From a virus (lineage: Duplodnaviria; Heunggongvirae; Uroviricota; Caudoviricetes), in IMG/VR virus record IMGVR_UViG_3300031949_000001, positions 32,001 to 96,000 of that record: a DNA stretch of 64,000 nt; one strand, 5' to 3'. The notes beneath the pieces were generated by a model. The model saw only the letters and a program-made list of their open reading frames with translations, ran no database searches and was not told the origin of the DNA. A program made the position numbers and the translations under genes. Below, piece after piece: positions 2,523-51,385 of this stretch (its first letter is position 1; each line of letters starts with the position of its first letter).

Positions 2523-3461
2523 ATGAGACATTTGATTGGGTTTTTCTGTTTTCTTTTATCGCTGGCAGCTAATGCCGATGCGGTGGACGAGCTAATGGAA
2601 CCGTATTTGATTATTGATATTCCACAATGCTGCGACATTAGCCAGCAGGAAAGATTTGATATCACAGATTTTATTTCTCCTTCTCATCCTTACAACTTTA
2701 CATCGGTCAGACTTAAAGCGGCTAATGTTCTTGTGATAGACCAAGAAACCGGAGAAATTCTCTTCTCAAAAAAAGCAGATGAAATCGTTTCTATCGCTTC
2801 AGTCACCAAACTTATGACTGCTATGGTTGTATTGGACGCTGATCTTTCTATGGACGAAATAATAACAATCACTCGGGCAGATGTTAATTGGCTAAAAAGA
2901 ACCCGTTCTCGTCTTCAAGAAGGAACAAAGCTCTCTCGTGCTGCAATAATGCGCTTGGCACTTATGAGTTCTGATAATCGCGCCGCTCATGCTCTTGCGC
3001 GAACTTATCCGGCAGGCTTCAAAGCGTTCATTATTGCTATGAATGATAAGGCACAAAACCTGGGAATGATGAACAGTGAGTTCTTCGATCCAACAGGTTT
3101 GACTCCTAAGAATACAAGCACGGCGCGTGATCTTGCTATAATGGTTGGAGCGGCTTATGGCTATGATGAAATCCGAGAGTTTAGTACAACTGAGCGTTAC
3201 ACGATAAAGCTCTCTAAGAAGCGTAACGCACGTCCTACACGGTTCATGAATTCGAACGCATTGATCCATACTCACCAATGGAAAATTGGTTTGAGTAAGA
3301 CGGGCTATATTTCGGATGCTGGTAGGTGTGTTGTTATGCAAGCACAAATTTCAGATCGTCCGGTTATCATTATTTTAATGGATAGCCTGACAAAAAGAAC
3401 TCGCGTGAAAGATGCCAATGCTTTAAAAGCTTGGTTGCAAACTATTTTGGAAGGAATTTAA
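2523..3461 (+). CDS. pbpG: D-alanyl-D-alanine endopeptidase, PBP7-like (peptidase S11)
   Basis: signal peptide; SVTK (SxxK), SDN and KTG motifs; DPTGL. Confidence 0.85.
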   Translation: MRHLIGFFCFLLSLAANADAVDELMEPYLIIDIPQCCDISQQERFDITDFISPSHPYNFTSVRLKAANVLVIDQETGEILFSKKADEIVSIASVTKLMTAMVVLDADLSMDEIITITRADVNWLKRTRSRLQEGTKLSRAAIMRLALMSSDNRAAHALARTYPAGFKAFIIAMNDKAQNLGMMNSEFFDPTGLTPKNTSTARDLAIMVGAAYGYDEIREFSTTERYTIKLSKKRNARPTRFMNSNALIHTHQWKIGLSKTGYISDAGRCVVMQAQISDRPVIIILMDSLTKRTRVKDANALKAWLQTILEGI

Positions 3462-4646: not shown

Positions 4647-5075
4647 ATGAAACTTGAAAGACGCGCCGGAATGCTCCCATACTTTGTCCATCCAGACGGG
4701 AAGATTGAATTTCTATTGATGGTTCCAACTAACCCTAAACTAACTGATAAGCCTCAGATCGCTAAGGGTTGGATTGATGAGGGAGAAGATCCATACAAGA
4801 CAGCCCGCCGAGAAGCCAAGGAAGAACTTGGTTTAAAAAAGAAAAATATGAAACGTATTCCATTACACTTGGGATTATGGGATAAAACAGAAATTTTTAT
4901 AGTTGAAGTTATCGCAAAAGAAAAGTTCAAACCAGTCGATAAAGAGGAAGTACGAAGAGTTCTTTGGATGACGACGGAAGAATTCCGAAAATCTGGTCGA
5001 AGATCCAATCGAGCAGTCATTGAATTGGCTAATATTATAGCCAAGCGCATTCGAGAAATTGAAAACGAGAAATAA
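4647..5075 (+). CDS. NUDIX hydrolase
   Basis: Nudix box GWIDEGEDPYKTARREAKEELG. Confidence 0.9.
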   Translation: MKLERRAGMLPYFVHPDGKIEFLLMVPTNPKLTDKPQIAKGWIDEGEDPYKTARREAKEELGLKKKNMKRIPLHLGLWDKTEIFIVEVIAKEKFKPVDKEEVRRVLWMTTEEFRKSGRRSNRAVIELANIIAKRIREIENEK

Positions 5076-5077
5076 TC

Positions 5078-5899
5078 ATGATACCTGATGTTCGGAGCAA
5101 TGTCTTACATTTGCCAGCAAATGAAGACGGTCGGGATTTTATTATTGGAGATTTACACGGCTGCTACGATGAACTACTAGCCGCGATGACCTACGTCAAG
5201 TTCGACTATGCTAAAGACAGAATGATTTGTGTTGGTGATTTAATAGACCGAGGTAAAAAATCATACGAATGTTTGAAGCTCCTTGATAATCCATGGTTCT
5301 TTTCGACTTTTGGGAATCATGAAGAGATGATGTACAAATCGATCATGACTGGAGACCCCGACTGGATTAGCCAATGGAAAAAGTATGGTGGTATGTGGGC
5401 GTGGGATTGGAATTTTGTCGCAACAGTTGATCGGTGGGATTTGGTAAAGAAATATTTGAAAAATTTACCGTTGATTATTACCGTTGGAGAAGGCAAGGAT
5501 CGATATAATGTTTTACATGCTGAAATTCACAATGGTTTAACTCCGGTGACTGATGAAAGTATTGACAAATGGGAATTTAAGAATTGTAATCCGGCTTATA
5601 TACGTGAAAAGATACTTTGGGGTAGAGCCATTATAGAAGGTAGGTTATATAACAAAGCGCATGAGATTCAAAAAGACATGTCGATAACGTACTGCGGTCA
5701 TACGCCAGTTGAGAAAGTAGTTCGTAAGGGCGCTCAAGTTTATATCGACACAGGTATTGTGTTTGGAGATTATTTAACGATGGTTGAACACAAGACACAA
5801 AAACTGATCAAGTACTACCCTGTCGGTGAGAGATTTGTTGAAAGCTATCTTGCTGATGTTGTAGATCGAGATTTAAATAAGTGGACACCAAATGGCTAA
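5078..5899 (+). CDS. Ser/Thr protein phosphatase (PPP/lambda-phosphatase-like metallophosphoesterase)
   Basis: GDLHG, GDLIDRG, GNHE, GHTP motifs. Confidence 0.9.
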   Translation: MIPDVRSNVLHLPANEDGRDFIIGDLHGCYDELLAAMTYVKFDYAKDRMICVGDLIDRGKKSYECLKLLDNPWFFSTFGNHEEMMYKSIMTGDPDWISQWKKYGGMWAWDWNFVATVDRWDLVKKYLKNLPLIITVGEGKDRYNVLHAEIHNGLTPVTDESIDKWEFKNCNPAYIREKILWGRAIIEGRLYNKAHEIQKDMSITYCGHTPVEKVVRKGAQVYIDTGIVFGDYLTMVEHKTQKLIKYYPVGERFVESYLADVVDRDLNKWTPNG

Positions 5900-6338
5900 A
5901 ATTTTAATGTTGATGGTAGTGCTTTTCTATATGTCGGTTTGTGGTGCGGTGGATCTTTCTAAGTTGGATAGTGGGCAGGCTCCTGGTTCGGGTTGTGAAA
6001 ATGTAGCACAATATTTTTTCAGTGTAGCCAAATTTGAAAGAGATAAAGGTGTTGATGTGCGCTTACCAAAGATGGTTTTAGTTGCTAATTTTGAATATAA
6101 CATTAACTCAAAATTAATTTTTGCTCTAGGAAGACCTTACTTCGATGAACTTCTAGCCTTCTTTCAGAAAGGTGTTGATGACGTGTGGCGCCTTAAAGAC
6201 ATTCCAGCCGAAGAATTCAGAGAGATGATTCGTGTAAATTGTGAAGCAACGAAGGCTGAAACATCGGAATTTATTTCTTTTGATACTTTGTACGCTTTTC
6301 GTAAACAATCAAAAGAACTTATTCAACCACAAAATTAA
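5892..6338 (+). CDS. secreted two-Cys protein (paralog family)
   Basis: signal peptide; C...RDKG...C pattern. Confidence 0.6.
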   Translation: MAKILMLMVVLFYMSVCGAVDLSKLDSGQAPGSGCENVAQYFFSVAKFERDKGVDVRLPKMVLVANFEYNINSKLIFALGRPYFDELLAFFQKGVDDVWRLKDIPAEEFREMIRVNCEATKAETSEFISFDTLYAFRKQSKELIQPQN

Positions 6339-6861
6339 AATGCTTTTTTGGAGAACTGCGTGGAAGCCCACACACGAGGAGAAGCTTTCCCTAATTTTAC
6401 CTGATTGTGACAGCCTGAAAAACTCTCTTCAGAAATGGAGAAAGCGCAACTTCATCATTGCGTATTGCTCGGAAACTTTCGTTATATATGTTTTTGTTGA
6501 AGGTGATATAGGTTTTAATATCGAAGGCTGGCAGTATTTTAACGTTGAAACAGTTAACAACTGTGGTCCTATTGAGGTATTGACTTTTCCTCCATTAGCG
6601 GGTAAAATAATATTTCATGATTCGAGAACTTAAATGGATCTTTCTTTTTTAGATGAAAGCAAGTTTGAATATAAAGACACTGGCTTGATCTTTGAAGCCG
6701 TTGATATGAGTACTTGGTTATGTCGCGAAAAGAGAATGTGGCTAATTTGTTGTTTTGGTAATTGGAAAACAGCGAAGTATGTTAATCGAGAGACAGTCTA
6801 TACTGACTACGATTCGTTTGAAAAGGCTTGTGATGCGATTGTTAAATCATAAAGGATAATA

Positions 6862-7131
6862 ATGAGTTTCTATCAAAAATCAAATAGTATGCAAGTGGCT
6901 TTGGATCGCATCTCTATATCTATGTTTGGGCGTTCGATAACCGAAGCGTTGGAGAAGAAGATATGCGTAATGTGTGCTTCTTCAGTCTATGATGTTGAAG
7001 AAGATAAGTGGGGATTTAGGGACAATCTATCACTGGTGGAATATCAAATTAGTGGAGTTTGTCAGGCTTGCCAAGACCCTATTTTCGGACTTGGAGAATA
7101 TGCTGAGAAATTCAGTAAAGACGAGATGTAG
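6862..7131 (+). CDS. small zinc-binding protein
   Basis: CVMC and CQAC motifs; RBS. Confidence 0.6.
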   Translation: MSFYQKSNSMQVALDRISISMFGRSITEALEKKICVMCASSVYDVEEDKWGFRDNLSLVEYQISGVCQACQDPIFGLGEYAEKFSKDEM

Positions 7132-7139
7132 GAAAAAGC

Positions 7140-7168
7140 TTGACAAGGCATAAATAGTCTTGTATAGT
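7140..7168 (+). promoter_or_regulatory. sigma70 promoter of tRNA cluster 1 (late-type ATAAATA in spacer)
   Basis: TTGACA-17 nt-TATAGT. Confidence 0.8.
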
Positions 7169-7217
7169 ATCAAAACTGAGAACGCGGGCATCCCGTCAAA
7201 CTGTTTAAGGAATAAAC

Positions 7218-7325
7218 ATGGTTACGCTTAAAGTCATCACTAACGCAGCAGAACATACATTTGCAGAGGCATTTACTGCCCCTGCGGAACCTGTTCGCGC
7301 CCTTGAGGATGGTCCTGGTGTGTAA
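7218..7325 (+). CDS. attenuator leader peptide 1, MVTLKVITNAAEHTFAEAFTAPAEPVRALEDGPGV
   Basis: TAAGGA RBS; 35-codon ORF whose 3' end covers the antiterminator strand. Confidence 0.75.
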   Translation: MVTLKVITNAAEHTFAEAFTAPAEPVRALEDGPGV

Positions 7326-7374
7326 GTAACCAAAGATCAACCAAAAAGGGCGCTTAGAAATAAGTGCCCTTTTT
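7297..7374 (+). terminator. attenuator: antiterminator GCGCCCTT (7297-7304) and intrinsic terminator (7343-7374)
   Basis: AAAAAGGGCGCTTA-GAAA-TAAGTGCCCTTTTT hairpin; GCGCCCTT is complementary to its 5' arm AAGGGCGC. Confidence 0.8.
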
Positions 7375-7377
7375 ATT

Positions 7378-7392
7378 TGCTCTTTTAAAATT
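7378..7392 (+). promoter_or_regulatory. boxA-like Nus antitermination site
   Basis: TGCTCTTTTAAAATT vs rrn boxA TGCTCTTTAACAATT. Confidence 0.6.
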
Positions 7393-7403
7393 CGGAAAAC
7401 TAT

Positions 7404-7478
7404 GGTGGTATTAGTGTAGCGGCTCTGCACATTTGCCTGTGAAGCAAAAAGTTTGGGATCGACCCCCAAATATCACCC
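7404..7478 (+). tRNA. tRNA-His(GTG), G-1/C73, CCA not fully encoded
   Basis: cloverleaf; TTTGC-CTGTGAA-GCAAA. Confidence 0.85.
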
Positions 7479-7524
7479 TTGTTGTTTGATGATAAATACC
7501 AGACAACAAAGGTGATAGAGAGCC

Positions 7525-8178
7525 ATGATTCATTATTTGTATCGAACTACGAATGTTTTGACGGGAAAATATTATCTCGGTATGCACTCAACGAAAAATC
7601 TTGACGATGGGTATATTGGGTCGGGTAAAATTTTACGACGTTCGATTAAGAAATATGGTTTGATAAATCATTTAAAGGAAGTATTTTTGTTTGTAAAAAC
7701 TAGAGAAGAATTAGTACAAAAAGAAAAAGAATTAATTACAGAAGAATTGTTAAAAGATCCATCAATAATGAATTTACGTTTAGGTGGTGAGGGTGGTGGT
7801 AATTGGACGAATGAACAACAACGAAAAAACAACGAAAAATCACAACAAGCGCAACGGAAGTTGATTGAAAATAACCCTCAATGGGTTGAATCGCGGTCGA
7901 GAAAACTTAGTGAGGCGCATAAACGTGCGTATGATAGTGGTAAAAGACCAAAAAAGCAACCACTTGATTGGACCGGACGGAAGCATTCTGAAGAAACGAA
8001 AGAGAAGCTTTCTAGGATTAAAAAAGGAATCTATGCAGATGGAAAAAATCCAAAAGCAAAGAAAGTAAAAGACGATGAAGAAAATATTTTTGCGACCTAT
8101 AAGGAATGTGGTATGTATCACAACATACATCCAGAAACGGTAGCAAGAAGAATAGCAAAAGGTTTGTACAGTGTTTAA
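7525..8178 (+). mobile_element. free-standing GIY-YIG (Seg-like) homing endonuclease with NUMOD3-like motif
   Basis: YLYRTTN...YYLG...YIGSG; GRKHSEETKEKLS; lies within the tRNA cluster. Confidence 0.85.
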
Positions 8179-8182
8179 TAGT

Positions 8183-8256
8183 GTGTGCGTGTTGTAATGG
8201 TAGCAACCGATCTTGTGACGGTCGTAGAGCGAGTTCGAATCTCGTCGTTCACTCCA
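8183..8256 (+). tRNA. tRNA-His(GTG)-like, atypical (U73, no encoded G-1)
   Basis: CGATC-TTGTGAC-GGTCG; T-arm; CCA. Confidence 0.7.
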
Positions 8257-8267
8257 ATAAACATTAT

Positions 8268-8342
8268 GCTGTTCTAGCTGAGATGGATTAGCGCGAGTCT
8301 GAAAAGCTCGAAAGGGTGGATCGTTACCACCGGATGGCACCA
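8268..8342 (+). tRNA. tRNA-Phe(GAA)
   Basis: CGAGT-CTGAAAA-GCTCG; ACCA end. Confidence 0.85.
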
Positions 8343-8346
8343 ACGA

Positions 8347-8469
8347 ATTTGTGAACGACTCGGTTGAAGAGTTATGGCTTCCGCCACTATGGGTGAACTA
8401 ATTATCCACCCTATTATGCAGTGTGGTCTATGTGCGCAGGACTGAAATGTGGATTTGTTGTTCACAGAT
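8347..8469 (+). ncRNA. unknown structured RNA
   Basis: 13-bp closing helix ATTTGTGAACGAC/GTTGTTCACAGAT between two tRNAs. Confidence 0.45.
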
Positions 8470-8477
8470 AGAATTAT

Positions 8478-8555
8478 CAGGGTGTGATGCCAATTGGTAG
8501 GCGACCTCTTTTGGAAAGAGGAATACTGTAGGTTCGAGCCCTATCACCCTGACCA
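8478..8555 (+). tRNA. tRNA-Pro(TGG)
   Basis: CCTCT-TTTGGAA-AGAGG; C1-G72, ACCA. Confidence 0.85.
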
Positions 8556-8557
8556 GT

Positions 8558-8677
8558 GTTTGTGTAGTGTGAATGGGTAGCACACCCCCCAATAGGGGTA
8601 GCTTGCGTAGTTCGATCTGTGCCTTGCAAGGCTGGGCTAGTTCGGAGGTCTCGGTTCGAGTCCGGGTACGAGCACTA
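8558..8677 (+). ncRNA. tRNA-like RNA with 6-nt anticodon loop and ~50-nt extra arm
   Basis: acceptor GTTTGTG/TACGAGC, D-arm, GGTTCGAGTCC T-arm; ends ACTA. Confidence 0.6.
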
Positions 8678-8688
8678 AAGAATTTGAT

Positions 8689-8764
8689 GGGTCTATGGCG
8701 TAAGTGGTCTGCGCGCATGCCTGAAGAGCATGAGGAGACGGTTCGATCCCGTATGGACCTACCA
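8689..8764 (+). tRNA. tRNA-Phe(GAA), G37 variant
   Basis: CATGC-CTGAAGA-GCATG; ACCA. Confidence 0.8.
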
Positions 8765-8781
8765 GAAGTTGTTGTACATAT

Positions 8782-8856
8782 AACCCGCTGGATTTCCGGG
8801 TAGATCAGGAGGCTTTCAACCTCACGAGACGGGTTCGACTCCCGTGCGGGTTACCA
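8782..8856 (+). tRNA. tRNA-Glu(TTC)
   Basis: GAGG-CTTTCAA-CCTC; acceptor AACCCGC/GCGGGTT; CCA. Confidence 0.8.
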
Positions 8857-8878
8857 CTTTAGAGTTTGGAGTATTACA

Positions 8879-9100
8879 ATGTTAACGCTTAAGGAGATGG
8901 TAAAAGGCGGTAAGAGAGTTAGATTTTCGTTTTACAGAGAGAAGGAATTGTGGTATACTACTGAGGATGGATTTGAATTTCCCGTCCCAATAGGGGATAT
9001 AGGTAGTGCGATATTTTTGGCTGAAGATAAAGCGATTTTGTTTATGCGATACATCCGCAAACATCTGTCTTATCTTGAGGAAGCCAAGTTAGAATCTTAA
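8879..9100 (+). CDS. small phage protein
   Basis: GGAG RBS; ORF between tRNAs. Confidence 0.7.
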   Translation: MLTLKEMVKGGKRVRFSFYREKELWYTTEDGFEFPVPIGDIGSAIFLAEDKAILFMRYIRKHLSYLEEAKLES

Positions 9101-9174
9101 CGTTTGGTTGGCAGATCAAGCGGAGAGTGAGGTTACACATGTAGATACGAGCCTGCCAGCCCAAATGCTACATG

Positions 9175-9250
9175 TGGTTCGTAGTTTAATGGCAGAACTG
9201 CCCCCATTGACGGGGTGAGTGTAGGTTCGATTCCTACCGGACGTTAACCA
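9175..9250 (+). tRNA. degenerate tRNA (TTG anticodon position, A33, broken acceptor stem)
   Basis: D- and T-arms intact; GCCCC-CATTGAC-GGGGT. Confidence 0.55.
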
Positions 9251-9256
9251 ATTTAT

Positions 9257-9331
9257 ACACTGTTCGACTAATGGCTAGGTCGCGAGTCCCTCAAACTTGA
9301 AATACCGGTTCGAATCCGGTACGGTGTACCA
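9257..9331 (+). tRNA. tRNA-Glu(CTC), C33
   Basis: CGAGT-CCCTCAA-ACTTG; ACCA. Confidence 0.8.
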
Positions 9332-9346
9332 ACAAAAGGAAATTAA

Positions 9347-9835
9347 ATGTTAGTGTTCTTAGATACCGAGTTTACGGACTTTATCAATATGGAGATGCTT
9401 TCAATTGGTATGGTTTCTGCTGACGGTAAACACGAATTCTACGCCGAAAGAACTGATTATTCTTTGAAAATGTGTTCAGGATTTGTGAAAGAAGAAATTC
9501 TTCCCTTGTTCGACAAGAGCGGTTTTGTTGGAACGAAAGAAGAAATTGGTTTGAAAGTGATTGACTGGATCATCGGTTTGCCGTATAATGAAGTTGTTAT
9601 AGTTATTGACTATCATGGAGACTGGCAAATCTTAGCTGATTTATTGCCTTCAGTGCCAATGAAACTTAAACGAAGTCCAGAATATATACAAACACTGACT
9701 GATTTTGCTACGAATGTATCGATTCAAGGCGTTGAAGAGTATTTTGAAAAGGTAGATAAGAGACGGCATCATGCTTTAGTTGATGCGAAAGCCAATAGGC
9801 ACGGTTGGCTGGCTGCAATGAAGACGTTGTATTAA
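9347..9835 (+). CDS. DEDD 3'-5' exoribonuclease-like protein
   Basis: FLDTEF...D...HHALVDA. Confidence 0.8.
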   Translation: MLVFLDTEFTDFINMEMLSIGMVSADGKHEFYAERTDYSLKMCSGFVKEEILPLFDKSGFVGTKEEIGLKVIDWIIGLPYNEVVIVIDYHGDWQILADLLPSVPMKLKRSPEYIQTLTDFATNVSIQGVEEYFEKVDKRRHHALVDAKANRHGWLAAMKTLY

Positions 9836-9837
9836 AT

Positions 9838-9912
9838 GGGGGTGTGGTGAAATTGGTATCACGCTAGCCTTGCAAGCTTGAATCCGGGGTCCGAATCCCC
9901 GTACCTCCACCA
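9838..9912 (+). tRNA. tRNA-Ala(TGC)
   Basis: G3-U70; CTTGCAA loop; ACCA. Confidence 0.9.
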
Positions 9913-10261
9913 ATAGTATTTTTATAAGGAAAAATAAAAATGAATGTTGTGATGCATAAAGAGACCATATTTTTATTAAATTCGATTTTTAAGATTTGTG
10001 CTCCAGAAGGTGCTATAAAGAGTGTTAATGAACGATATTATACCGATATGTTCGATGTTGACACAGTTCAAATCAAAATTGGTTTTGTTTGGGAAGGTAT
10101 GAGTTGGATGGCACTAAAGAACGAACGTTCAGATGAAATCTTTGTTGATTTGGCAAATTCTGAAAAAGCAAATGAAATACAGAAAGAAATTATGAGTAAG
10201 TTGAAAATTGCTCTTAATAACGAACTTGTTGTAGTTTTATAAAATTTAATTAAAGAATTCG

Positions 10262-10657
10262 AAGTATTGGCTCGATTGGCTGATACAAGATACACCCTCG
10301 CCACGGGGCGGAATCCGGAGCATGCAGAAGGATTTTTGAAGCACTGAATACAATCGATATGTTCAGTGAAACGTGGCACTTATGGGGAATTCGTCTAAGA
10401 TCAAGGACGCTGCCCAATACAGGCAGAAATGGAGGTCCGAATCCTTCATTCCCCACCAATACGTCGCAAGGCGTATAAGACAATGTGAAACGAAGGACTA
10501 CCTTAAGCCAGTAAAAGTCTGGTGCTGTACTATCACTTCGGTGAGAGAAACAGAACGTCACTGATCAGCGGAGTAATATTGTATCGCTTGGGAAACATAT
10601 TGAATGTCAGCCCAAGGGCTTGCGGTTAATGAGGCATCATTTCCGTGGCAAGCACCT
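10262..10657 (+). ncRNA. candidate ~400-nt structured RNA containing a tRNA-like element
   Basis: long-range pairs 10300-10306/10643-10649 and 10282-10288/10579-10585; GCAA and UUCG hairpins; no credible ORF. Confidence 0.5.
10384..10458 (+). tRNA. tRNA-like element with aberrant loop CAATACA
   Basis: GGGGAAT/ATTCCCC-ACCA; CTGCC/GGCAG stem. Confidence 0.65.
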
Positions 10658-10658
10658 T

Positions 10659-10734
10659 CCCCCCGTAGCGTAATCTGGCAGCGTACATGCTTTGGGAGCA
10701 TGTGGTGCTGGTTCAAATCCAGCCGGGGAGACCA
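10659..10734 (+). tRNA. tRNA-Pro(TGG)
   Basis: CATGC-TTTGGGA-GCATG; ACCA. Confidence 0.85.
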
Positions 10735-10740
10735 ATTTAT

Positions 10741-10815
10741 GCCTGTTTAGTGATAACGGTAGCACGCATCTTCGGTAAAGATGTAGTATCAGTTCAACTC
10801 TGATAATAGGCTCCA
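10741..10815 (+). tRNA. tRNA-Thr(GGT), C33
   Basis: CATCT-TCGGTAA-AGATG; TCCA. Confidence 0.8.
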
Positions 10816-10818
10816 AAT

Positions 10819-10893
10819 GGGAGTGTAGCTCAGGACAGAGCGCAGAGCATTAGGCTCTGAGGTCGGTTGGTGTAAGTCCATCCATTCCCGCCA
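10819..10893 (+). tRNA. tRNA-like, TTA at anticodon position, A33
   Basis: CAGAG-CATTAGG-CTCTG; GGGAGTG/CATTCCC-GCCA. Confidence 0.6.
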
Positions 10894-11089
10894 AAATAAT
10901 CGATAAGGAATAATATGAACGGTAAAGCTGCTAAAATGTTGAGAAGGATTCGACGCTCAGATCATAAGTCCAAAAAACATTATAGATCATTGACACATAC
11001 TCAACGCAGTAAAGTGAGAACGGCACACGCAAAAAGCGGCAATAGCAGTATCGATTATCTAGAAACATTTTTTCCTGTGAAAAAGAAAA

Positions 11090-11596
11090 ATGGATGAGTT
11101 AATTGAAAAAATTCTCACGTTTGGTGATTTTTGGGATTACCAACACGAAGAAATCTTTTTTAAATTTGATATGCATGATGAAGCTATTATATTGGGACAA
11201 GATGAATATGAAGAAAAATTTCAATCATTACTGTTGGATATATTCGTGTTGGCTAGAAAATTGAAGGAAAGCAAAATGCTTAAAGAAGGCGTAAGAGAAA
11301 AGTTCTTGACGAACACCGACGAAACCGGTCGGTTTGTGATTTATTCACCCCGAACCGGCAGATCTTATTACATCGAGCCAATTGGTGATTCCCATATTAA
11401 ATGGGGGTCAGTTGATCCATCATCCAAAGGGTTGATGGTAAAAAAGGGTTGGAAGAAGCATACCGGCTCGATTAGCGAAGATGAAAGTCTGATTATCAAA
11501 GAGAATGGGTTTGAAAACATTCGAATGTTAGAACCGGGTGTTAGCCCGTTGAAAGCTATCGAATATATTGATGATCAATATCCGGATTCAAACTAA
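11090..11596 (+). CDS. hypothetical phage protein
   Basis: ORF. Confidence 0.6.
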   Translation: MDELIEKILTFGDFWDYQHEEIFFKFDMHDEAIILGQDEYEEKFQSLLLDIFVLARKLKESKMLKEGVREKFLTNTDETGRFVIYSPRTGRSYYIEPIGDSHIKWGSVDPSSKGLMVKKGWKKHTGSISEDESLIIKENGFENIRMLEPGVSPLKAIEYIDDQYPDSN

Positions 11597-11711
11597 TGAA
11601 CAAACTTGTTGGGTGTATAATGATATTCTTCAAGCTGTCATGAAAATTAAAAAAGAAGAATTAGTTAAATTTTTAAGTGAAGATTGGAAAAGGGGTAGAA
11701 AAATAAATTAT

Positions 11712-11789
11712 CTGGATGTGGGCTAATTGGTAAGCCGCTTCGTTCGGGGCGAAGATATCATGGAGGTTCAAGTCCTCTCATCTAGACCA
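11712..11789 (+). tRNA. tRNA-Pro(CGG)
   Basis: CTTCG-TTCGGGG-CGAAG; ACCA. Confidence 0.85.
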
Positions 11790-11793
11790 ACGT

Positions 11794-11944
11794 TTGGGCT
11801 AGGCACTAAGGCAAGAATTGAAAGGCTCTTGACAGCAAACCACCTTCGGGATGTTAGGCTGAAAGCTCCCGCGTACAAGTGTGCGCAGTACGGATACGAA
11901 GCATTAGATCCTTCGTCGCAATGCCGTGAGCCTTCGAGGTCCAA
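11794..11944 (+). ncRNA. unknown structured RNA
   Basis: closing pairs TTGGGCT/GGTCCAA and GGCA/TGCC; UUCG and GAAA loops; between tRNAs. Confidence 0.45.
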
Positions 11945-11974
11945 CACGTAGAAAAATACCTCCAAGAACACATT

Positions 11975-12049
11975 GTTCTCATCTTCTAACGGCTAGGAAA
12001 TCTGACTTTCAATCAGATAATAGGGGTTCGATTCCCCTTGAGAACGCCA
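11975..12049 (+). tRNA. tRNA-Glu(TTC)
   Basis: TCTGA-CTTTCAA-TCAGA; GCCA. Confidence 0.9.
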
Positions 12050-12053
12050 GTAT

Positions 12054-12184
12054 GCCGAGATAGTGTAATGGCTGCACGCTAAAACTATCTCTAAGAAATT
12101 TTCTCAGCGAAAGCTGAAGTGGAATTTAGGGTTACTTCTATCATAAGGAAGAAGTGGAGTGTTCGAATCCTCCTCTCGGCACCA
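12054..12184 (+). ncRNA. tRNA(CAT)-like RNA with ~55-nt hairpin between D-arm and anticodon arm
   Basis: GCCGAGA/TCTCGGC-ACCA; CTTCT-ATCATAA-GGAAG. Confidence 0.65.
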
Positions 12185-12220
12185 GTTTTACCCATAAAAA
12201 ATAATAATAAGGAGAACACC

Positions 12221-12673
12221 ATGAATAGCCAACAAGAATGGGATGATTTTTATCTCGGTTTAGCTAAGTACGTTTCAACCAAATCAAAAGACCCTAGCAC
12301 CAAAACTGGTGCTGTCATCGTAAAACCAAATAAACGCCCCGCCACTTTCGGGTTCAATGGATTCCCTCAGAAAATGGAAGACAAGCCAGAATGGTACGCA
12401 AACCGCGACGAAAAATACAGCCGTATTATTCATTGCGAAATGAATGCTGTTTTGTTCGCCGAATCCGACCTGACCGGATGTACTCTCTACACCTACCCAT
12501 TCATGTCTTGTGACCGTTGCTTTGTTCATATGGTACAAGCAGGTATCACTCGTTTCGTAGCTCCACAAGCAACACCAGATCAACTCACCCGTTGGGGTGC
12601 CGCATTTGACAAGGTTCGCGGGTACGCAAAAGATATGGGTGTCGTCATTGAAGAGCTTGAGTGGAATAGTTAA
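12221..12673 (+). CDS. dCMP deaminase
   Basis: KSKDPS, HCEMNA, SCDRC; AAGGAG RBS. Confidence 0.9.
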   Translation: MNSQQEWDDFYLGLAKYVSTKSKDPSTKTGAVIVKPNKRPATFGFNGFPQKMEDKPEWYANRDEKYSRIIHCEMNAVLFAESDLTGCTLYTYPFMSCDRCFVHMVQAGITRFVAPQATPDQLTRWGAAFDKVRGYAKDMGVVIEELEWNS

Positions 12674-12701
12674 TAAATACGAGTGTACATAGGAATACGC
12701 T

Positions 12702-13223
12702 ATGAAACTATTTGATTTAAATATACTTACAGAAGCTGAATTGGGAAATCGTCCAGTTTATGTTTTCCGTCGTATTAATCGCGATGGGAAGTCTCAGTAC
12801 GCTTTTGTAAAACATGAAGGTCCAACCTCTACCATAACATTTAATCCAACAGGAGATTCGCGCCTCCTTTTCTACACAAGTGGAGAAACCGCGAGGGTTC
12901 GTCTACAAAAATTTAATGATCCATCCATAAAACTTTCTGTAATGCCGATCAGTCAAATAAGAAACATAGAGAGAATCGCAAATAAAAAACCAGACGAGAG
13001 TGGTTATGTGCTGTTCTTTCAGACCCCAAGCGGCGAAGATTTTGGTTATCAAGCGATTTTTCCGAATGGAAAGTACCAATATGTAGTTGGCAAATCGAAG
13101 GCAGCACCGAGAAATAGAATTCTTAAGTTCAATAGTGCGAAAGATGCCTCTTATTTTGCTAGTCATTATTTTCCAGGTAAAAGAGTTGCCGTTCGACCAG
13201 TTGAGGGTTCTACGACCACCTAA
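12702..13223 (+). CDS. late protein, putative head-internal
   Basis: ATAAATA upstream; MKLFDLNILTE N-terminus. Confidence 0.55.
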   Translation: MKLFDLNILTEAELGNRPVYVFRRINRDGKSQYAFVKHEGPTSTITFNPTGDSRLLFYTSGETARVRLQKFNDPSIKLSVMPISQIRNIERIANKKPDESGYVLFFQTPSGEDFGYQAIFPNGKYQYVVGKSKAAPRNRILKFNSAKDASYFASHYFPGKRVAVRPVEGSTTT

Positions 13224-16394: not shown

Positions 16395-16489
16395 GCTAGG
16401 TTGGCCTATTGGTTGGGCTCCGGCTTTATAATCCGGCGATGCGTCCAGATGGGGCGATGAAGAGAGTTCGATTCTCTCACCTAGTACCA
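16395..16489 (+). tRNA. tRNA-Ile(TAT) with long variable arm
   Basis: CCGG-C-TTTATAA-T-CCGG; ~25-nt V-arm; ACCA. Confidence 0.75.
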
Positions 16490-18517: not shown

Positions 18518-19657
18518 ATGATAGAGTTTATTGGTGGTCGTAATTATTTTTACGATTTTAATAAGATTGTAGAAAAAGCTACTACCGAGTACTCTGGTCC
18601 TACGCTCTATCTAAGTGAATCCGGCATCGAACAAAAGATTCGTATGTTCAAAGATGCTCTGCCGTCTATCAAACCACACTATGCCGTTAAGGCTAACCCA
18701 AGCATTCGCGTTCTGGAAATTCTGGAACGGGAACATTGTAATTTTGAAGTTGCTTCTTATGAAGAATTTAAAATTCTCCAACAAATGGGTGTTGGTGTGG
18801 ATCGAATCCTTTACAGCAATCCAATCAAACCAGCCTGGATGATGCGCCAGCTCGATATGGAACACGTCGGCTGTTTCGTGGCTGATAACCTCAATGAAAT
18901 TAAGAGAATTGTTGCTGTTAACAGCAACATCGCCATTTATTTGCGTATGCATTTAGGAGATGACGCCTCAGGAAGTGTCATACCTCTTTCTGGAAAATTT
19001 GGTGCATCACCGGTCAATATCGCCGATATTATTAAATATTGCGGTTCTAATCGTGTTAATCTTTGTGGATTGGGCTTCCATGTCGGCTCTCAATGTCTTG
19101 ATCCGTTAAGCTGGAGAGATGGAATCCAAACAGCCAAGCATTACTTTGATGTGATGAAAGAAGAAGGGTTGACACCTTACTTCTTAAATATCGGTGGTGG
19201 TTTTCCTGTGTATTACAAGCAGACTCTAGGAAACACGTTCAGAAACATAACGAGCACTATCAACAAAGAAATAGCCGGAATGGATGAATATCGTATTGTC
19301 GCCGAACCGGGTCGATTCCTGGTGGCTGACTGTGGCGTTTTTGTTGCTCAAGTCATCAACGTGACCGTTCGAAATGGTATGAATTGGGCGTATCTTGATG
19401 CTGGGTTGTTTAATGGTCTATTCGAAATCCATGAAGGTATTGAGTATGAAATCCGTTCGAATGCATCTGGTGAACGCAGAATGTGGACATTAGCCGGTCC
19501 GACATGTGATTCGTTTGATATTATTACCAAAAAAGCTAACCTACCTACCAATCTAAAAGAAGGCGATTTCCTTTATTTTATGAACGGTGGCGCTTACACA
19601 ACCGCCTATGCAACGACCTTCAATGGTTTTCCGCTACCACAAGTTGAATTTCTATAA
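18518..19657 (+). CDS. ornithine/lysine decarboxylase (PLP fold III)
   Basis: YAVKAN, KFG, HVGSQ, IGGGFP, EPGRF, GPTCDSFD, GAYT. Confidence 0.9.
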   Translation: MIEFIGGRNYFYDFNKIVEKATTEYSGPTLYLSESGIEQKIRMFKDALPSIKPHYAVKANPSIRVLEILEREHCNFEVASYEEFKILQQMGVGVDRILYSNPIKPAWMMRQLDMEHVGCFVADNLNEIKRIVAVNSNIAIYLRMHLGDDASGSVIPLSGKFGASPVNIADIIKYCGSNRVNLCGLGFHVGSQCLDPLSWRDGIQTAKHYFDVMKEEGLTPYFLNIGGGFPVYYKQTLGNTFRNITSTINKEIAGMDEYRIVAEPGRFLVADCGVFVAQVINVTVRNGMNWAYLDAGLFNGLFEIHEGIEYEIRSNASGERRMWTLAGPTCDSFDIITKKANLPTNLKEGDFLYFMNGGAYTTAYATTFNGFPLPQVEFL

Positions 19658-26190: not shown

Positions 26191-26219
26191 TTGACTTTTA
26201 GTTTCGGACTATATATACT
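26191..26219 (+). promoter_or_regulatory. sigma70 promoter of tRNA cluster 2
   Basis: TTGACT-17 nt-TATACT. Confidence 0.8.
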
Positions 26220-26295
26220 GTACAGACGTTGTTAATTCCGTTTGAATTAACTGGTGGAGGCGGTCTGGAAACCAGACGCCCTTTTGGAGATTAAA

Positions 26296-26376
26296 ATGTT
26301 TACAGCAACTCAGACAAAGCGTATTGCGAATGTGGTCGATAATCAAAGACCACAGGGGTTTTTCGTGTCTAAGTAA
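26296..26376 (+). CDS. attenuator leader peptide 2, MFTATQTKRIANVVDNQRPQGFFVSK
   Basis: GGAG RBS; 26 codons; 3' end covers the antiterminator strand. Confidence 0.8.
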   Translation: MFTATQTKRIANVVDNQRPQGFFVSK

Positions 26377-26426
26377 GCTGAAACTAAGCAAGCAAACATG
26401 AAAAGCCCTAGAGATAGGGCTTTTTT
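26355..26426 (+). terminator. attenuator: antiterminator (26355-26368) and intrinsic terminator (26401-26426)
   Basis: AAAAGCCCTA-GAGA-TAGGGCTTTTTT; GGGGTTTTTCGTGT pairs with ACATGAAAAGCCCT (14 bp, 3 G-U). Confidence 0.85.
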
Positions 26427-26446
26427 ATTTGTATGTTTTTGTTGAC

Positions 26447-26462
26447 TGCTCTTTAAAAATTT
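26447..26462 (+). promoter_or_regulatory. boxA Nus antitermination site
   Basis: TGCTCTTTAAAAATTT, near-identical to rrn boxA. Confidence 0.75.
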
Positions 26463-26584
26463 GGTAGCATATATAAGCTTTACTATCCAGTTTGTAGGAT
26501 GGGTAAGTGTTGTCACCGGCTAGTGGATAACCCTCGGGTCTTACGGTTAGCGTTGTGTTAACTGTTCACTAAAAGGAGATTATC

Positions 26585-39342: not shown

Positions 39343-39637
39343 TTGGTTAGCCAGATGATCGCTGTGAGAGTAATCTCATAGAAGAAAGTCGGGACTGCAC
39401 TGGCACAGCTTAGGAGTTAATGGCTCCCCACGGTAACGTGAGTGACGGCAACAGAGACGAGTCCGCATAAATAACATTTATGTGGGGTGAAACGGGCGAC
39501 AGCGTAGGTGCAGCAACTATAGACAGGGGGTGTTGATAGTGCCAGGGAGCCTCCGGGTAATAGGCAAAGATTTTAATGGCGACATTGAAACGAGACGAAT
39601 GATCATCCTCGATAGAATCCCGCTTACGTCTAACCAA
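39343..39637 (+). ncRNA. rnpB: RNase P RNA (bacterial type, compact)
   Basis: P1 TTGGTTAG/CTAACCAA; GAAGAAAGTCGGGAC and ATAGAATCCCGCTTA form P4; ACAGAGA and GTGAAACG conserved segments. Confidence 0.9.
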
Positions 39638-40054
39638 AAGGATTTTAAATGAAACTAAGAGAATTAGAAGAAGCAAAAGACCAAATGGCTTTGATTGTCG
39701 ATTGGATAGCTCAGCGTATCGTTCGAGAAGCTCAACAAGAAGCAGCCGTTGCTCAAGAAGTTAAAGGTATCGCTGCTGATAGTGCTATGCTTCATAAAGA
39801 AGCAAAAATGAAGTTGAAAGATTTGATGGATCGGGTTGATACTGAGATATATCACCTTATCTTCAAATGAGAGAATGTTGGGTCTGCTCCGAGCCCATTT
39901 TTGAATGTATGGGATTTGTAGCAGCCGGTGATTTGAATGATTTTTTGGAAGGTAAACGAACGTCGGTTCGTGAAACTTGTGGTGGTTGTATTTTACGTTG
40001 TATGTATGCGGAAGAGATGGGTTTACCCCGACCATTTCCGTATCCAAATGAAAT

Positions 40055-40186: not shown

Positions 40187-41230
40187 ATGCTTTTCAATAT
40201 CTGTCTTTTCGGCTACGGTCTAATTGGTCGCACAATCAACGCATATCTACGCGATCTTCATATCTACAATGTCGATGTCTTCGATAAAAATAAAGTCAAT
40301 TTAAACAAGAAAGGTAAGCCGATAAATCTTGATAATGCGGACGATGTAACCAAGCTACTTAGGGATTACGATGCGGTAATTGCTGCAACACCATATCAAG
40401 TAAACGAATTTATTGCTCATTGTGCTGGTGTTGCTGGTATACCATACTTCGATTTAACTGAAGATGTTGCCACCACAAAAGCCATCACAGCTATGCGAAT
40501 CGATTACGGTTCTACTTTCATTCCTCAATGTGGTCTAGCTCCAGGAGCTATTGGTATTATCACTCGTGACCTTATAAGAGGTTTCGAGGAAATCGATGAA
40601 ATCAAGATGCGGGTAGGAGCGCTTCCAATCACAACCAGCAACCAAATGAAGTATTATCTCTCATGGTCGTCTGAGGGTTTAGTGAATGAATATTATGAGC
40701 CGTGCCCAGCCATCATAAACGGGCGCTACGAGCTTTTAGACCCGCTGGAAGGTTACGAGACATTGTTGCTCGATGGCTGCGAATACGAGGCATTTAACAC
40801 GTCCGGAGGCATTGGTGAATGGGCTAATGATATTCGAATCGCTGGTCCAATTAAGAAGTTGACATACAAAACTATCCGTTACAAAGGACACCGCGATCAA
40901 ATTCTATTCCTGAAAGAAGACTTGGGTCTTTCTAAAGAGAGAATGACTGACATTTTCAATGCTCAGGTTCCGCACAATGAAAATGATGTAGTTCTGATCT
41001 TTTCCGAGGTTATCGGTAGAAACGATGGGACACGCATCCGCAAGAGCTATTTCAAAAAGATTTACGGTGATAAAGGTATTTCTGCTATTCAGAAGACAAC
41101 TGCTGCCGGCATCGTATCGGTGGTTCAGAATTTCTTTAGCTTAAGGAACTCAAAACGAGCCTTTGAATCCAATGAGGGATTGGATTACACGGATTTCATT
41201 ACAAACAAATACGGAGCAATCTTCGCCTAA
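40187..41230 (+). CDS. saccharopine dehydrogenase/lysine 6-dehydrogenase-family oxidoreductase
   Basis: GYGLIG Rossmann motif, YFDLTED, CGLAPG, WS.EGL.NEY, YKTIRYKGH. Confidence 0.85.
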   Translation: MLFNICLFGYGLIGRTINAYLRDLHIYNVDVFDKNKVNLNKKGKPINLDNADDVTKLLRDYDAVIAATPYQVNEFIAHCAGVAGIPYFDLTEDVATTKAITAMRIDYGSTFIPQCGLAPGAIGIITRDLIRGFEEIDEIKMRVGALPITTSNQMKYYLSWSSEGLVNEYYEPCPAIINGRYELLDPLEGYETLLLDGCEYEAFNTSGGIGEWANDIRIAGPIKKLTYKTIRYKGHRDQILFLKEDLGLSKERMTDIFNAQVPHNENDVVLIFSEVIGRNDGTRIRKSYFKKIYGDKGISAIQKTTAAGIVSVVQNFFSLRNSKRAFESNEGLDYTDFITNKYGAIFA

Positions 41231-48182: not shown

Positions 48183-50318
48183 ATGAATGTAGCAAAACTA
48201 CTGACGAGAGAGGAATTTCGAACTAAAGTTTTCGAAAGGGACCACTATCGCTGTGTATTTTGTAAGGCTGACGCTGTTGATGCCCATCATATTATGGAAC
48301 GGCGCCTGTGGGATGATGGAGGATACTATCTTGAGAATGGCGCCTCGGTCTGTACACCATGTCACATTCTTTGTGAAAAGACCTATTATTCGACTGCTGA
48401 TGTAAGGAAGGCTACTGGGATCACTCGTATCCTGCTTCCGGATCATTTCTATGATGACCAGGAGTTCGATAAGTGGGGTAATCCGGTTATGCCGAATGGT
48501 CAGCGTCTTCGTGGAGAGCTTTTTTATGACGGAAGCGTTCAGAAAATCATGGCTGATTACCTACATTTGTTTACGAAGTATATCAAATATCCACGCACAT
48601 TTCACTTACCATGGTCAGATGGAATGCACGATGATGATAGAATGATGCCAGATGTTAAGATTTTTGAAGGTAAGCGAGTTATTGTAATGGAGAAGATGGA
48701 TGGGGAATGTTTGTTAGCGTCCACAAAAATAACTATGAGTGATTTTAGTAAAATTAACATACGTGATATTTATAAAAATAAAATTATAGGACAGCATGTA
48801 TTGGGAGTAAATCAACGAGGTGAAATAGTTCCATCCAAAATATTGAATGTATTTTTTAATGGAGTCACTGAGGAATGGTTAAGTGTGAATGTTAAGGGGC
48901 AACATGGACCATATGTTAAAATAATTTGCACTCCAAATCATAAATTCAATGTTAATGACAATTATATTGAAGCCAAAAATATGAAGGGTGGTGATATGGT
49001 AAAAATAATTGATTATTCTCCTGATTTAACTTCAATACAAGAACAAATTTTATTAGGAATGTTGTTGGGAGACGCATCTATTCATAATGTAAAAGATCAT
49101 GGTTGTAAAAATGTCAATAAAATGGTAATTCAATTTAGCCACAAAAAAGAACATTTAGAATATATTGAATGGATTAATAAGAGACTTGGTGATATCGCTC
49201 GCCAGTATTGTTTTTGTACCTCAGGTTTTGGTTCTACAATGATTAAATGTTGGACGGCTTCTTCAAATTCTATCTTTAATTCTTTTAATTCGATGATAGT
49301 GAATGGTAAGAAAATCGTCCCGAATTGGGTTATTGAAAAAATAACACCATTATCATTAGCATTTTGGTATATGGATGATGGAAATTTACTACATAATTTC
49401 AAACAACGCGATAGAGCACAGTTCTCAGTCTGTGGATTTGACCGAGAAAGTTGTCTTGTTTTACAACAATGTCTTGAAAAGTTTGGTATTAATTCAGTAT
49501 TGGAAGAATATAAAAATTATTTATATTTACGTTTATTTACAAACGATTCAGAAAGATTTTTTGAATTAATTTCACCACATATTCCACCGTGTATGCAGTA
49601 TAAATTACCAGAGAAACTTAGAGGCAAAGAACTGACTATACCAAAAGTTGAACATAATATTTCTGTTCCTAGATTACGTGAAGTGGAGGTTAAATCGGTT
49701 GAAAAATATTTACATAACACTAATCGTGGAAAATATGATATAGAAACTGAAACACATAATTATTTTGCTAATGGAGTATTAGTTCATAATTGCACCACCA
49801 TGTACAATGATTACATCCATGCGCGTAGTATTGATTCTGGTTCTCATGGTTCAAGAAATTGGATCAAGGCATTCCATGGACAAATGTGTAATAATATTCC
49901 AGATGATTGGCGGATCAACGTCGAAAACGTTTATGCCAAGCATTCGATTTTTTACAAAAACTTACCGACTTATGCTTATGGTTTTGCTCTCTGGAATGAA
50001 AAGAACTATCTTCTGGATTGGATGACCTCACTGGAATGGTTTGAACTCCTTGGAATAACTCCATGTCCGTGGTTCTATTGGGACACATATGACAGAAAAA
50101 AGATTCATTCTTTATATGAGGAACTTTCCAAGGATCACGAAACCGAAGGTTATGTAATCAGAGTTGACGAACCGTTTCATTATGGTCAATTCCGAACACA
50201 CGTTGGAAAATTCGTGAGAAAGGGTCATATTCAAACTACAAAACATTGGGCGTATGGTCAGAAAATTGAACCAAACATATTAAAAGAAGGAGTTACGGGA
50301 TTTGAGGCTCTATTGTAA
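48183..50318 (+). CDS. HNH domain-RNA ligase fusion containing an intein
   Basis: N-terminal CVFC..DAHHI...CTPCH; KYPRTFHLPWS...EKMDGE|C; EGYVIR, KFVR. Confidence 0.85.
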   Translation: MNVAKLLTREEFRTKVFERDHYRCVFCKADAVDAHHIMERRLWDDGGYYLENGASVCTPCHILCEKTYYSTADVRKATGITRILLPDHFYDDQEFDKWGNPVMPNGQRLRGELFYDGSVQKIMADYLHLFTKYIKYPRTFHLPWSDGMHDDDRMMPDVKIFEGKRVIVMEKMDGECLLASTKITMSDFSKINIRDIYKNKIIGQHVLGVNQRGEIVPSKILNVFFNGVTEEWLSVNVKGQHGPYVKIICTPNHKFNVNDNYIEAKNMKGGDMVKIIDYSPDLTSIQEQILLGMLLGDASIHNVKDHGCKNVNKMVIQFSHKKEHLEYIEWINKRLGDIARQYCFCTSGFGSTMIKCWTASSNSIFNSFNSMIVNGKKIVPNWVIEKITPLSLAFWYMDDGNLLHNFKQRDRAQFSVCGFDRESCLVLQQCLEKFGINSVLEEYKNYLYLRLFTNDSERFFELISPHIPPCMQYKLPEKLRGKELTIPKVEHNISVPRLREVEVKSVEKYLHNTNRGKYDIETETHNYFANGVLVHNCTTMYNDYIHARSIDSGSHGSRNWIKAFHGQMCNNIPDDWRINVENVYAKHSIFYKNLPTYAYGFALWNEKNYLLDWMTSLEWFELLGITPCPWFYWDTYDRKKIHSLYEELSKDHETEGYVIRVDEPFHYGQFRTHVGKFVRKGHIQTTKHWAYGQKIEPNILKEGVTGFEALL
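48708..49790 (+). mobile_element. intein with LAGLIDADG endonuclease
   Basis: starts CLLAST; CTPNHKF; LGMLLGDA and WYMDDG; ends VLVHN followed by Cys+1; lower GC. Confidence 0.9.
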
Positions 50319-50926: not shown

Positions 50927-51385
50927 TAAGGTTGAAACTGACTCTTCTAAATACCGCCAGTTAGTTTAGGAGATAAAGAAATGGAAAAATTGGTTGAAAC
51001 CTGGGATGAGATGTTACCAACTCTCAATTCATACGATATGACCGATGCGGATAAGATTTCTCTAGCGGAAATTCTTATCCAGATGTTGGAAAATAGTGGT
51101 GCCGATGATTGGGAAAGTCTAGTTGATGATCCTATTCTTTACGAAGCAGCCCGCAACTTACACCCTGATTTCGATTGGGATAATGACGAGGAAGATGTAG
51201 ATGACGAGGATTAATAATGTACTACTGTTATTGTATAAAATGGATTGAATACCAAAAAATCGAACAACGCGAACGTTCTTATCTTTTTGTACATGGATTT
51301 CTTTACACCGGACCTACCTTCAAGTTCTGCCCGTTTTGTGGTAGTGAATTAGAAAACGATGACCCATCAGCAGGAGGATTCGAAA

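Follow-up and report, generated by a model that had tools for sequence, protein, structure and literature searches.

Transcription of a tRNA block in the genome of a large phage is likely gated by a ribosome-mediated leader-peptide attenuator, here termed leader 1, which is followed by a boxA element of the type found in ribosomal RNA (rrn) operons. The sequence features suggest that the phage probably makes the tRNAs of this block mostly when ribosomes read the codons sampled by the leader slowly. The window (i.e., the whole 64,000-nt stretch of DNA that was analyzed) comprises bases 32001-96000 of an IMG/VR virus record (IMGVR_UViG_3300031949_000001; 378,912 bp, ~94% complete, 41.5% G+C), and contains 39 tRNA genes and a class A RNase P RNA. 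Positions are those of the window unless given as genome coordinates, and the features of leader 1 and its tRNA block are as follows:

7140-7168, plus strand: sigma-70-type promoter, TTGACA-17-TATAGT, with 11/12 consensus matches
7207-7211, plus strand: Shine-Dalgarno sequence AAGGA, 6 nt 5' of the ATG, read from the sequence
7218-7325, plus strand: leader 1 ORF, 35 codons and TAA, with the promoter 50 nt upstream
7245-7292, plus strand: regulatory run of 16 codons (A10-P25), encoding only Ala, Glu, His, Thr, Phe, and Pro
7296-7314, plus strand: antiterminator segment within ORF codons 27-33, with the core GCGCCCTT at 7297-7304
7343-7374, plus strand: intrinsic terminator (5' arm 7343-7356, loop 7357-7360, 3' arm 7361-7374)
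7378-7395, plus strand: rrn-type boxA, TGCTCTTTTAAAATTCGG, assigned from the consensus and from identity to the betaproteobacterial rrn spacer boxA
7405-12049, plus strand: tRNA block in the order His, His, Phe, Pro, Phe, Glu, Gln, Glu, Ala, an odd tRNA (anticodon ATA), Pro, Thr, Pro, Glu
7525-8178: GIY-YIG homing endonuclease, one of several small ORFs interspersed among the tRNAs

The promoter is the top promoter match within positions 5000-13000, and would place the start of the leader 1 transcript near 7175. A first-pass annotation of this DNA had reported a promoter, leader ORF, antiterminator, terminator, and boxA, and each of these elements was found where it had been placed. The run of 16 codons (codons 10-25) that it described as restricted to six amino acids is likewise present, and tRNAs for all six are encoded in the downstream block; codons 2-9 (VTLKVITN) lie outside the amino acid set of this cluster apart from Thr. 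The leader 1 peptide has no match in Pfam or PHROG, and no identical protein is on record. A comparison of 7100-7420 with Rfam returned no leader-family or T-box match at the gathering score or at E ≤ 1, and identity as a T-box or as a known Rfam leader (Trp_leader, His_leader, Thr_leader, Leu_leader, and others) was rejected, given that no covariance model matched.

The terminator has 14 pairs (-18.1 kcal/mol) and a T-run that reaches 7377. The proposed antiterminator core, GCGCCCTT (7297-7304), is the exact complement of AAGGGCGC (7346-7353) in the terminator 5' arm, and lies within the last nine codons of the ORF. The extended duplex (7296-7314 with 7338-7353) has a predicted energy of -19.6 kcal/mol vs. 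a shuffle mean of -12.6 (p = 0.007), where both values refer to the most stable pairing of the ORF region with the terminator 5' arm and the null comes from dinucleotide shuffles. The two predicted folds are mutually exclusive: the minimum free energy (MFE) structure without the terminator 3' arm has 12 antiterminator pairs, and the full-length MFE structure contains the terminator. Because the antiterminator forms first, read-through would be the structural default, and truncated transcripts adopt the antiterminator by default in 11 of the 11 leaders analyzed, of which three are from this genome and eight from other contigs of phage or metagenome origin. An anti-antiterminator (1:2) helix as in trp was not found in these folds, which give local pairings and no consistent 1:2 helix.

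This pairing potential is specific to the leaders of tRNA clusters. As a genome-wide control, 78 strict intrinsic terminators from both strands were collected, and each 5' arm was scored against the upstream 120 nt. The strongest upstream complements belong to leaders 3, 2, and 1 of this genome (-21.7, -20.0, and -18.3 kcal/mol, respectively; each p ≤ 0.005), and the next two terminators are not significant.

Together, these elements suggest how the leader would operate. The transcript would start at the strong promoter, and a ribosome would enter the 35-codon ORF, which is presumed to be translated and in which the RNA of codons 27-33 is complementary to the terminator 5' arm, 20 nt downstream. 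When the 5' arm leaves RNA polymerase with this segment still unoccupied, the two would pair, no terminator would form, and polymerase would read through. A ribosome in step, positioned on the last codons or the stop, would mask the segment, in which case the terminator would form and transcription would stop before the tRNAs. A delay on any upstream codon (Ala, Glu, His, Thr, Phe, and Pro for the most part) would lead to more tRNA transcription; since a delayed ribosome would leave the antiterminator free, output should rise when the sampled amino acids are decoded slowly. Stalling would in this way cause read-through, and the signal may be tRNA supply or, alternatively, amino acid supply. 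Given the placement of boxA after the conditional terminator, only read-through transcripts would carry it. There, it may bind Nus factors, and probably recruits host NusB/NusE for crossing the untranslated, structured tRNA region.

Two further leaders occur in this genome, and the first-pass annotation had raised the prospect of one beyond leaders 1 and 2. A scan of the genome identified this third leader, rich in Leu, Lys, Trp, and Tyr, ahead of its own tRNA block. The features of both are:

26191-26464, plus strand: leader 2 unit, with the promoter at 26191-26219 and a 26-codon ORF at 26296-26376
26354-26464, plus strand: remainder of the leader 2 unit, with the antiterminator at 26354-26369, the terminator at 26400-26426, and boxA at 26447-26464
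302144-302061 in genome coordinates (outside the window), minus strand: leader 3 ORF, 27 codons, with a GTG start and GGAG 6 nt upstream

The leader 2 antiterminator duplex is predicted at -20.6 kcal/mol (p = 0.001 vs. shuffles). Leader 3 has a promoter-like TTGACT upstream and adjoins a minus-strand block of Lys, Lys, Leu, Leu, Trp, Tyr, Met (three copies), and Arg tRNAs. The peptide preceding its antiterminator is QTLLTLLKLWLGYKS, its codons for LGGVL are complementary to the terminator 5' arm (-23.2 kcal/mol for this duplex, p = 0.001), and the terminator itself (-24.4 kcal/mol) is directly 5' of tRNA-Lys. Leader 3 has no boxA.

Leaders of the same layout were sought in other genomes by boxA-based pattern scans of IMG/VR and the JGI metagenomes. 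The scans gave many matches, of which a distinct subset heads tRNA arrays; the remaining matches mostly have no tRNA nearby, and were set aside as resembling chance occurrences or bacterial rrn spacers. The tRNA-Gln region of Cronobacter phage GAP32 was also discarded, as it matches through the tRNA alone. Eight contigs (G001/L156, L024, L210, L026, L206, L182, L016, and L183) share the order of promoter, 30-43-codon ORF, terminator, and boxA with unrelated sequences, and a tRNA array lies behind the module in all of these except L206, where the contig is too short. Of 10 leaders in which its position was measured, eight have the 5'-arm complement ending 3-14 nt upstream of the stop codon, and this complement beats shuffles (p ≤ 0.009) in 10 of 11. 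In four cases (L024, L210, L026, and L206), the ATG is located 7-10 nt past the -10 box, an arrangement suggestive of translation that is leaderless or nearly so; no ribosome-binding site is recognizable in L016 or L182. One additional candidate, L055 (tRNA-Met, a 56-aa ORF, terminator, boxA, and 12 tRNAs), was excluded as ambiguous because its 5'-arm complement falls past the stop codon. Two other contigs, L023 and L029, have only a promoter, boxA, and tRNAs, and for this reason the ORF-terminator module appears to have been inserted into the leader of a tRNA operon. In G001 (a 292-kb phage), no such leader precedes the other tRNA blocks, whose first tRNAs are Asp, His, and Met.

The codon content of the leaders follows the tRNAs that they precede. 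Of the 25 codons that precede the leader 1 antiterminator, 18 belong to the set of the corresponding cluster (background 0.383, p = 7e-4). The regulatory codons of leader 2 include 14 of 18 in the set V, T, K, R, I, N, Q, D (p = 6e-3), with all eight members represented, and those of leader 3 include 10 of 15 in its own cluster set (p = 1e-3). In G001, the 21 codons after Met encode K, T, I, N, A, and V only; the seven tRNAs behind the leader (Ala, Thr(CGT), Thr(TGT), Ile, Asn, Lys, and Val) precede an 18-kb tRNA-free gap, and 21 of 22 regulatory codons are in the set A, I, K, N, T, V (p = 4e-8). In L016, 29 of 33 codons specify amino acids of the 16 tRNAs that come next (R, I, F, D, H, E, Q, K, W, C, M; p = 2e-7), and 10 of these 11 amino acids are represented in the leader, and L183 has 10 of 16 regulatory codons in its set (p = 1e-3).

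We compared the six leaders ahead of partial tRNA sets with all six clusters in a 6 × 6 matrix. Every leader (6/6) scores best against its own cluster, the diagonal sum ranks first among 720 permutations, and the Fisher combined p for the six leaders is ~5e-19; within this genome, the 3 × 3 leader-cluster diagonal is the best of six. The earlier argument that matching leaders speak against chance is modest for leader 1 alone (p = 7e-4) and decisive when the other leaders are included. Both the architecture and the leader-cluster match recur in these other leaders, which supports the attenuator interpretation first proposed for this site.

Five leaders (L024, L210, L026, L182, and L206) contain all 20 amino acids within 39-42 residues, for which the chance is 0.005-0.01 each, as estimated from random 40-42-residue windows of phage proteins. 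The first four precede near-complete tRNA arrays, and the L206 contig is too short to include tRNAs. L024 and L210 are diverged homologues that differ at 19 of 39 aligned positions and have their single Cys, Asp, and Gln at different positions, and both retain all 20 amino acids.

A signal at the level of synonymous codons was not detected in the leaders: 179 of 245 regulatory codons are readable by downstream anticodons vs. 174 expected given the amino acids alone (z = 1.0). Several codons lie outside the range of the phage isoacceptors under standard wobble, including ACA in leader 1 (beyond the reading range of the Thr(GGT) of its cluster), CGC, CGT, and AGA in L016, and AAA in L183. As the choice among synonymous codons does not favor the phage anticodons beyond expectation, the data support tuning to amino acid families and not a closed loop at each isoacceptor. 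Each amino acid occurs one to seven times per leader with no long tandem runs, and sensitivity to a mild shortage should be low as a result. By the general principle of amino acid operon attenuation, as given in PMC1183508, the design seems to fit the detection of severe tRNA loss rather than mild starvation.

The element at 7378, previously described as boxA-like, is supported as a boxA by its identity to that of the betaproteobacterial 16S-23S spacer. The motif TGCTCTTTWAAAA has only two occurrences in the 379-kb genome, one immediately 3' of the leader 1 terminator and one immediately 3' of that of leader 2, and near-identical boxA motifs head at least eight phage tRNA arrays. The extended motif, TGCTCTTTAAAAATTYGGAAGAAG, is present in the genomes of Thauera, Burkholderiales, and other Betaproteobacteria; at the two bacterial loci that were checked, it lies between tRNA-Ala and the 23S rRNA, which is the position of the rrn spacer boxA. 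Given its identity to this bacterial element, the phage motif can be considered a boxA of host type. Separately, the type of boxA gives a weak hint of betaproteobacterial hosts for some of the leader-bearing phages. The E. coli rrn boxA consensus is TGCTCTTTAACAA, and the phage core, TGCTCTTT(A/T)AAAA, is nearly equal to it. The placement also resembles that of rrn antitermination (boxB-boxA-boxC, with NusB, NusE, NusA, NusG, and SuhB), in that boxA precedes a long, untranslated, structured transcription unit. However, the phage element is ahead of tRNA arrays and 3' of a conditional terminator.

The tRNA block behind leader 1 opens with tRNA-His at 7405, 9 nt beyond boxA, and includes two His, two Phe, three Pro, three Glu, one Ala, and one Thr(GGT). 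The first-pass annotation had described the leader as using exactly the amino acids of this cluster. That correspondence stands for His, Phe, Pro, Glu, Ala, and Thr, but it is slightly overstated, because ARAGORN also calls a Gln(TTG) at 9174 and the odd tRNA with anticodon ATA at 10384 (labeled Tyr), and leader 1 contains neither Gln nor Tyr. Strong promoter-like sites occur inside the block (e.g., 9561-9589, with 11/12 matches), and none was found in the interval from the terminator to tRNA-His. In leader 2, a promoter-like TTGACT-17-TAGCAT spans boxA, and it is possible that this region acts as a promoter; in leader 1, a promoter role for the boxA region was ruled out, as there is no acceptable -35. 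G001 has a promoter-like site just after boxA. In view of the internal promoters and of these sites at or after boxA in leader 2 and G001, gating may be partial, and the attenuator may control only part of tRNA expression.

Other explanations of leader 1 can be weighed against the same observations. It is unlikely, though worth considering, that the leader acts as a general sensor of translation capacity or timing that has no specificity for individual amino acids and a composition that is only loosely tuned. Here, host shut-off, ribosome-targeting defences, or the stringent response would slow ribosomes and lead to read-through. The fold logic is compatible with such a sensor, as it gives read-through whenever the ribosome is late or absent, and so are the absent synonymous-codon signal and the five leaders that hold every amino acid; the mycobacterial whiB7 uORF (PMC10274678) is a precedent for a broadly responsive attenuator. 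Nevertheless, a pure capacity sensor has no need to draw 21 of 22 codons from six amino acids that are exactly those of the seven tRNAs behind it (as in G001), and the six partial-set leaders, three of which are in this genome, match their own sets and not the others.

The abundance of small ORFs with strong promoters and terminators in phage genomes raises another explanation, namely that leader 1 is an ordinary small early phage gene, with the tRNAs transcribed from other promoters or by leaky read-through. A peptide with no detectable homologues and a block with internal promoters are in keeping with this, yet we consider it very improbable: the interval from the terminator to tRNA-His is free of promoter-like sites, only three tRNA-cluster leaders stand out among the terminators of the genome, and the peptide sequence varies between phages whereas the layout, the antiterminator position, and the composition rule are conserved. 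There is similarly little chance that the hairpin and boxA constitute an rrn-like boxB-boxA antitermination leader in which the ORF is incidental. The boxA is genuine, rrn leaders do have a hairpin (boxB) just 5' of boxA, and some phage arrays consist of a promoter and boxA with no ORF, but the hairpin in question is a canonical terminator with a 14-bp stem followed by a U-run, and the upstream complement in the last codons of the ORF would be left unexplained, as would the composition match.

As a proposed leader-peptide attenuator, leader 1 shares several properties with the enterobacterial leaders (thrL for Thr/Ile; ilvL for Leu/Val/Ile; trpL, hisL, pheL, and leuL): a short leader ORF, an intrinsic terminator, an exclusive antiterminator set by ribosome position, and regulatory codons that correspond to the products of the controlled genes. 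It differs in that the enterobacterial leaders precede genes for biosynthetic enzymes and those of the phages precede tRNA genes. Furthermore, the phage leaders sample 6-20 amino acids, mostly one to seven times, in place of tandem runs of one to three kinds, and their design has three segments, with no 1:2 anti-antiterminator found and with boxA after the terminator. The phage leader also lacks a match to the Rfam leader families.

Attenuators of the Actinobacteria offer additional parallels. According to PMC10274678, the whiB7 uORF responds to the loss of many amino acids, tRNAs, and synthetases; stalling on the whiB7/wblC uORF leads to antitermination, and the uORF sequence varies by species, with a conserved composition that sets the response. 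That system differs from the phage leaders in being bacterial and not viral, in controlling the transcription factor of a stress/resistance regulon, and in being enriched for a single amino acid, Ala. The leaderless polycysteine short ORFs of mycobacteria, which bioRxiv 10.1101/834739 describes as amino-acid-responsive attenuators, are located at the 5' end of the transcript and can be compared with the near-leaderless L024, L210, L026, and L206. These polycysteine ORFs respond to one amino acid (Cys) and precede protein-coding operons, and leader 1, in contrast, has a normal 5' UTR with a Shine-Dalgarno sequence. Full-text searches of the literature turned up neither a leader peptide that controls tRNA genes nor a boxA ahead of phage tRNA arrays.

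DNA that is near-identical to this phage is present in soil and freshwater-sediment metagenomes. Near-identical strains occur in four other soil or freshwater-sediment DNA runs, in which the leader 1 ORF is unaltered, and in one divergent metagenome contig the interval 7305-7366 is replaced. No close relative was found among GenBank phages by megablast, or in IMG/VR with three flanking proteins as queries, and the public runs searched for the phage sequence list no RNA run.

The purpose of phage tRNA genes has been debated for decades, and their control has hardly been addressed. Proposed roles include codon compensation, the replacement of decaying host tRNAs, and the evasion of tRNA-cleaving defences (PMC10264068, PMC11464382). 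A leader spelled in the amino acids of the downstream tRNAs implies the measurement of decoding speed and an on-demand supply of tRNA, which in giant phages would apparently be organized block by block. At slightly less than an even chance, large phages may more generally operate a modular, demand-driven tRNA supply in which each block has its own leader composed of the amino acids of that block (or of all 20 where the array is complete), the loss of particular host tRNAs switches on exactly the replacement set, and boxA makes the read-through polymerase processive. Host tRNAs could be lost through anticodon-nuclease defences or through decay after host shut-off, and the system would then serve as an inducible counter-defence and, if true, be the first case of leader-peptide attenuation of tRNA genes. 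The attenuator reading would extend classical attenuation to RNA genes, to sensors of 6-20 amino acids, and to a combination with rrn-type antitermination. It would also offer synthetic biology a compact natural sensor of tRNA availability, and provide a sequence signature for locating the heads of phage tRNA operons.

Besides the attenuators ahead of the tRNA blocks in the window, this genome has a third putative leader-peptide attenuator, which lies outside the window:
Genome 302144-302006, minus strand: third leader-peptide attenuator (putative).
Here, an ORF of 27 codons in which Leu, Lys, Trp, and Tyr are abundant is followed by a terminator, and the tRNA genes right after this terminator occur in the order Lys, Lys, Leu, Leu, Trp, Tyr, Met (three copies), and Arg. 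No boxA, the rrn-type antitermination motif, is present in this leader (genome 302144-302006, minus strand).

A naturally occurring variant of the middle part of leader 1 is found in X3, a freshwater-sediment DNA run. On one low-depth contig, window positions 7262-7304 and 7367-7396 are kept, while the 62 nt at 7305-7366 are replaced by 71 other letters; beyond 7396, the contig leads into another variant of tRNA-His.

The boxA of leader 2 is spanned by a promoter-like TTGACT-17-TAGCAT (window 26444-26472), and in the 292-kb phage G001, TTGAAA-17-TATAAT lies immediately past boxA. These motifs suggest that behind some attenuators there may be a second promoter, which would be ungated. In the bacterial-looking metagenome contigs L199, L209, L211-L214, and L220, a tRNA 3′ end and a hairpin with a T-run are followed by TGCTCTTTAAAAATTCGGAAGAAG, which genome matches identify as the boxA of the Betaproteobacteria rrn 16S-23S spacer.

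Genes resembling tRNA-Ile(TAT), of unusual length (92-110 nt), recur across unrelated phage tRNA arrays:
Window 16395-16489: long tRNA-Ile(TAT)-like gene.
L024:5403-5494: the same.
L026:3543-3637: the same.
L016:8388-8479: the same.
L225:1198-1307: the same.
The surplus length falls within the anticodon arm or close to it; the L225 gene has a 41-nt insert in its anticodon loop. In cluster 1, the tRNA block behind leader 1, one of the ARAGORN calls is a tRNA whose anticodon is ATA (window 10384-10458); the program also calls CTA-anticodon tRNAs (amber-suppressor-like, labeled "Pyl") in three of the phages compared (genome 268404, minus strand; G001rc 67575; L222:13860).

Between both tRNA-His genes of cluster 1, directly behind the leader 1 attenuator, is a homing endonuclease ORF, and the window encodes further proteins, including four auxiliary metabolic genes:
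Window 7525-8178, plus strand: GIY-YIG-type homing endonuclease ORF (PHROG 314).
Window 48183-50318, plus strand: 711-aa ORF with RNA ligase, intein splicing, and LAGLIDADG endonuclease domains.
Window 2523-3461: D-Ala-D-Ala carboxypeptidase (auxiliary metabolic gene).
Window 18518-19657: Orn/DAP/Arg decarboxylase (auxiliary metabolic gene).
Window 40187-41230: saccharopine-dehydrogenase-like enzyme (auxiliary metabolic gene).
Window 51359-52624: IMPDH/GMP reductase (auxiliary metabolic gene).
Because it combines these three domains, the 711-aa ORF looks like an RNA ligase interrupted by an intein. The saccharopine-dehydrogenase-like enzyme possibly has a role in polyamine synthesis.

An RNase P RNA gene also sits within the phage tRNA region:
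Window 39343-39641, plus strand: bacterial class A RNase P RNA (142 bits, E = 1e-43).
The occurrence of this RNA on a phage, beside ∼40 tRNA genes, is unusual.
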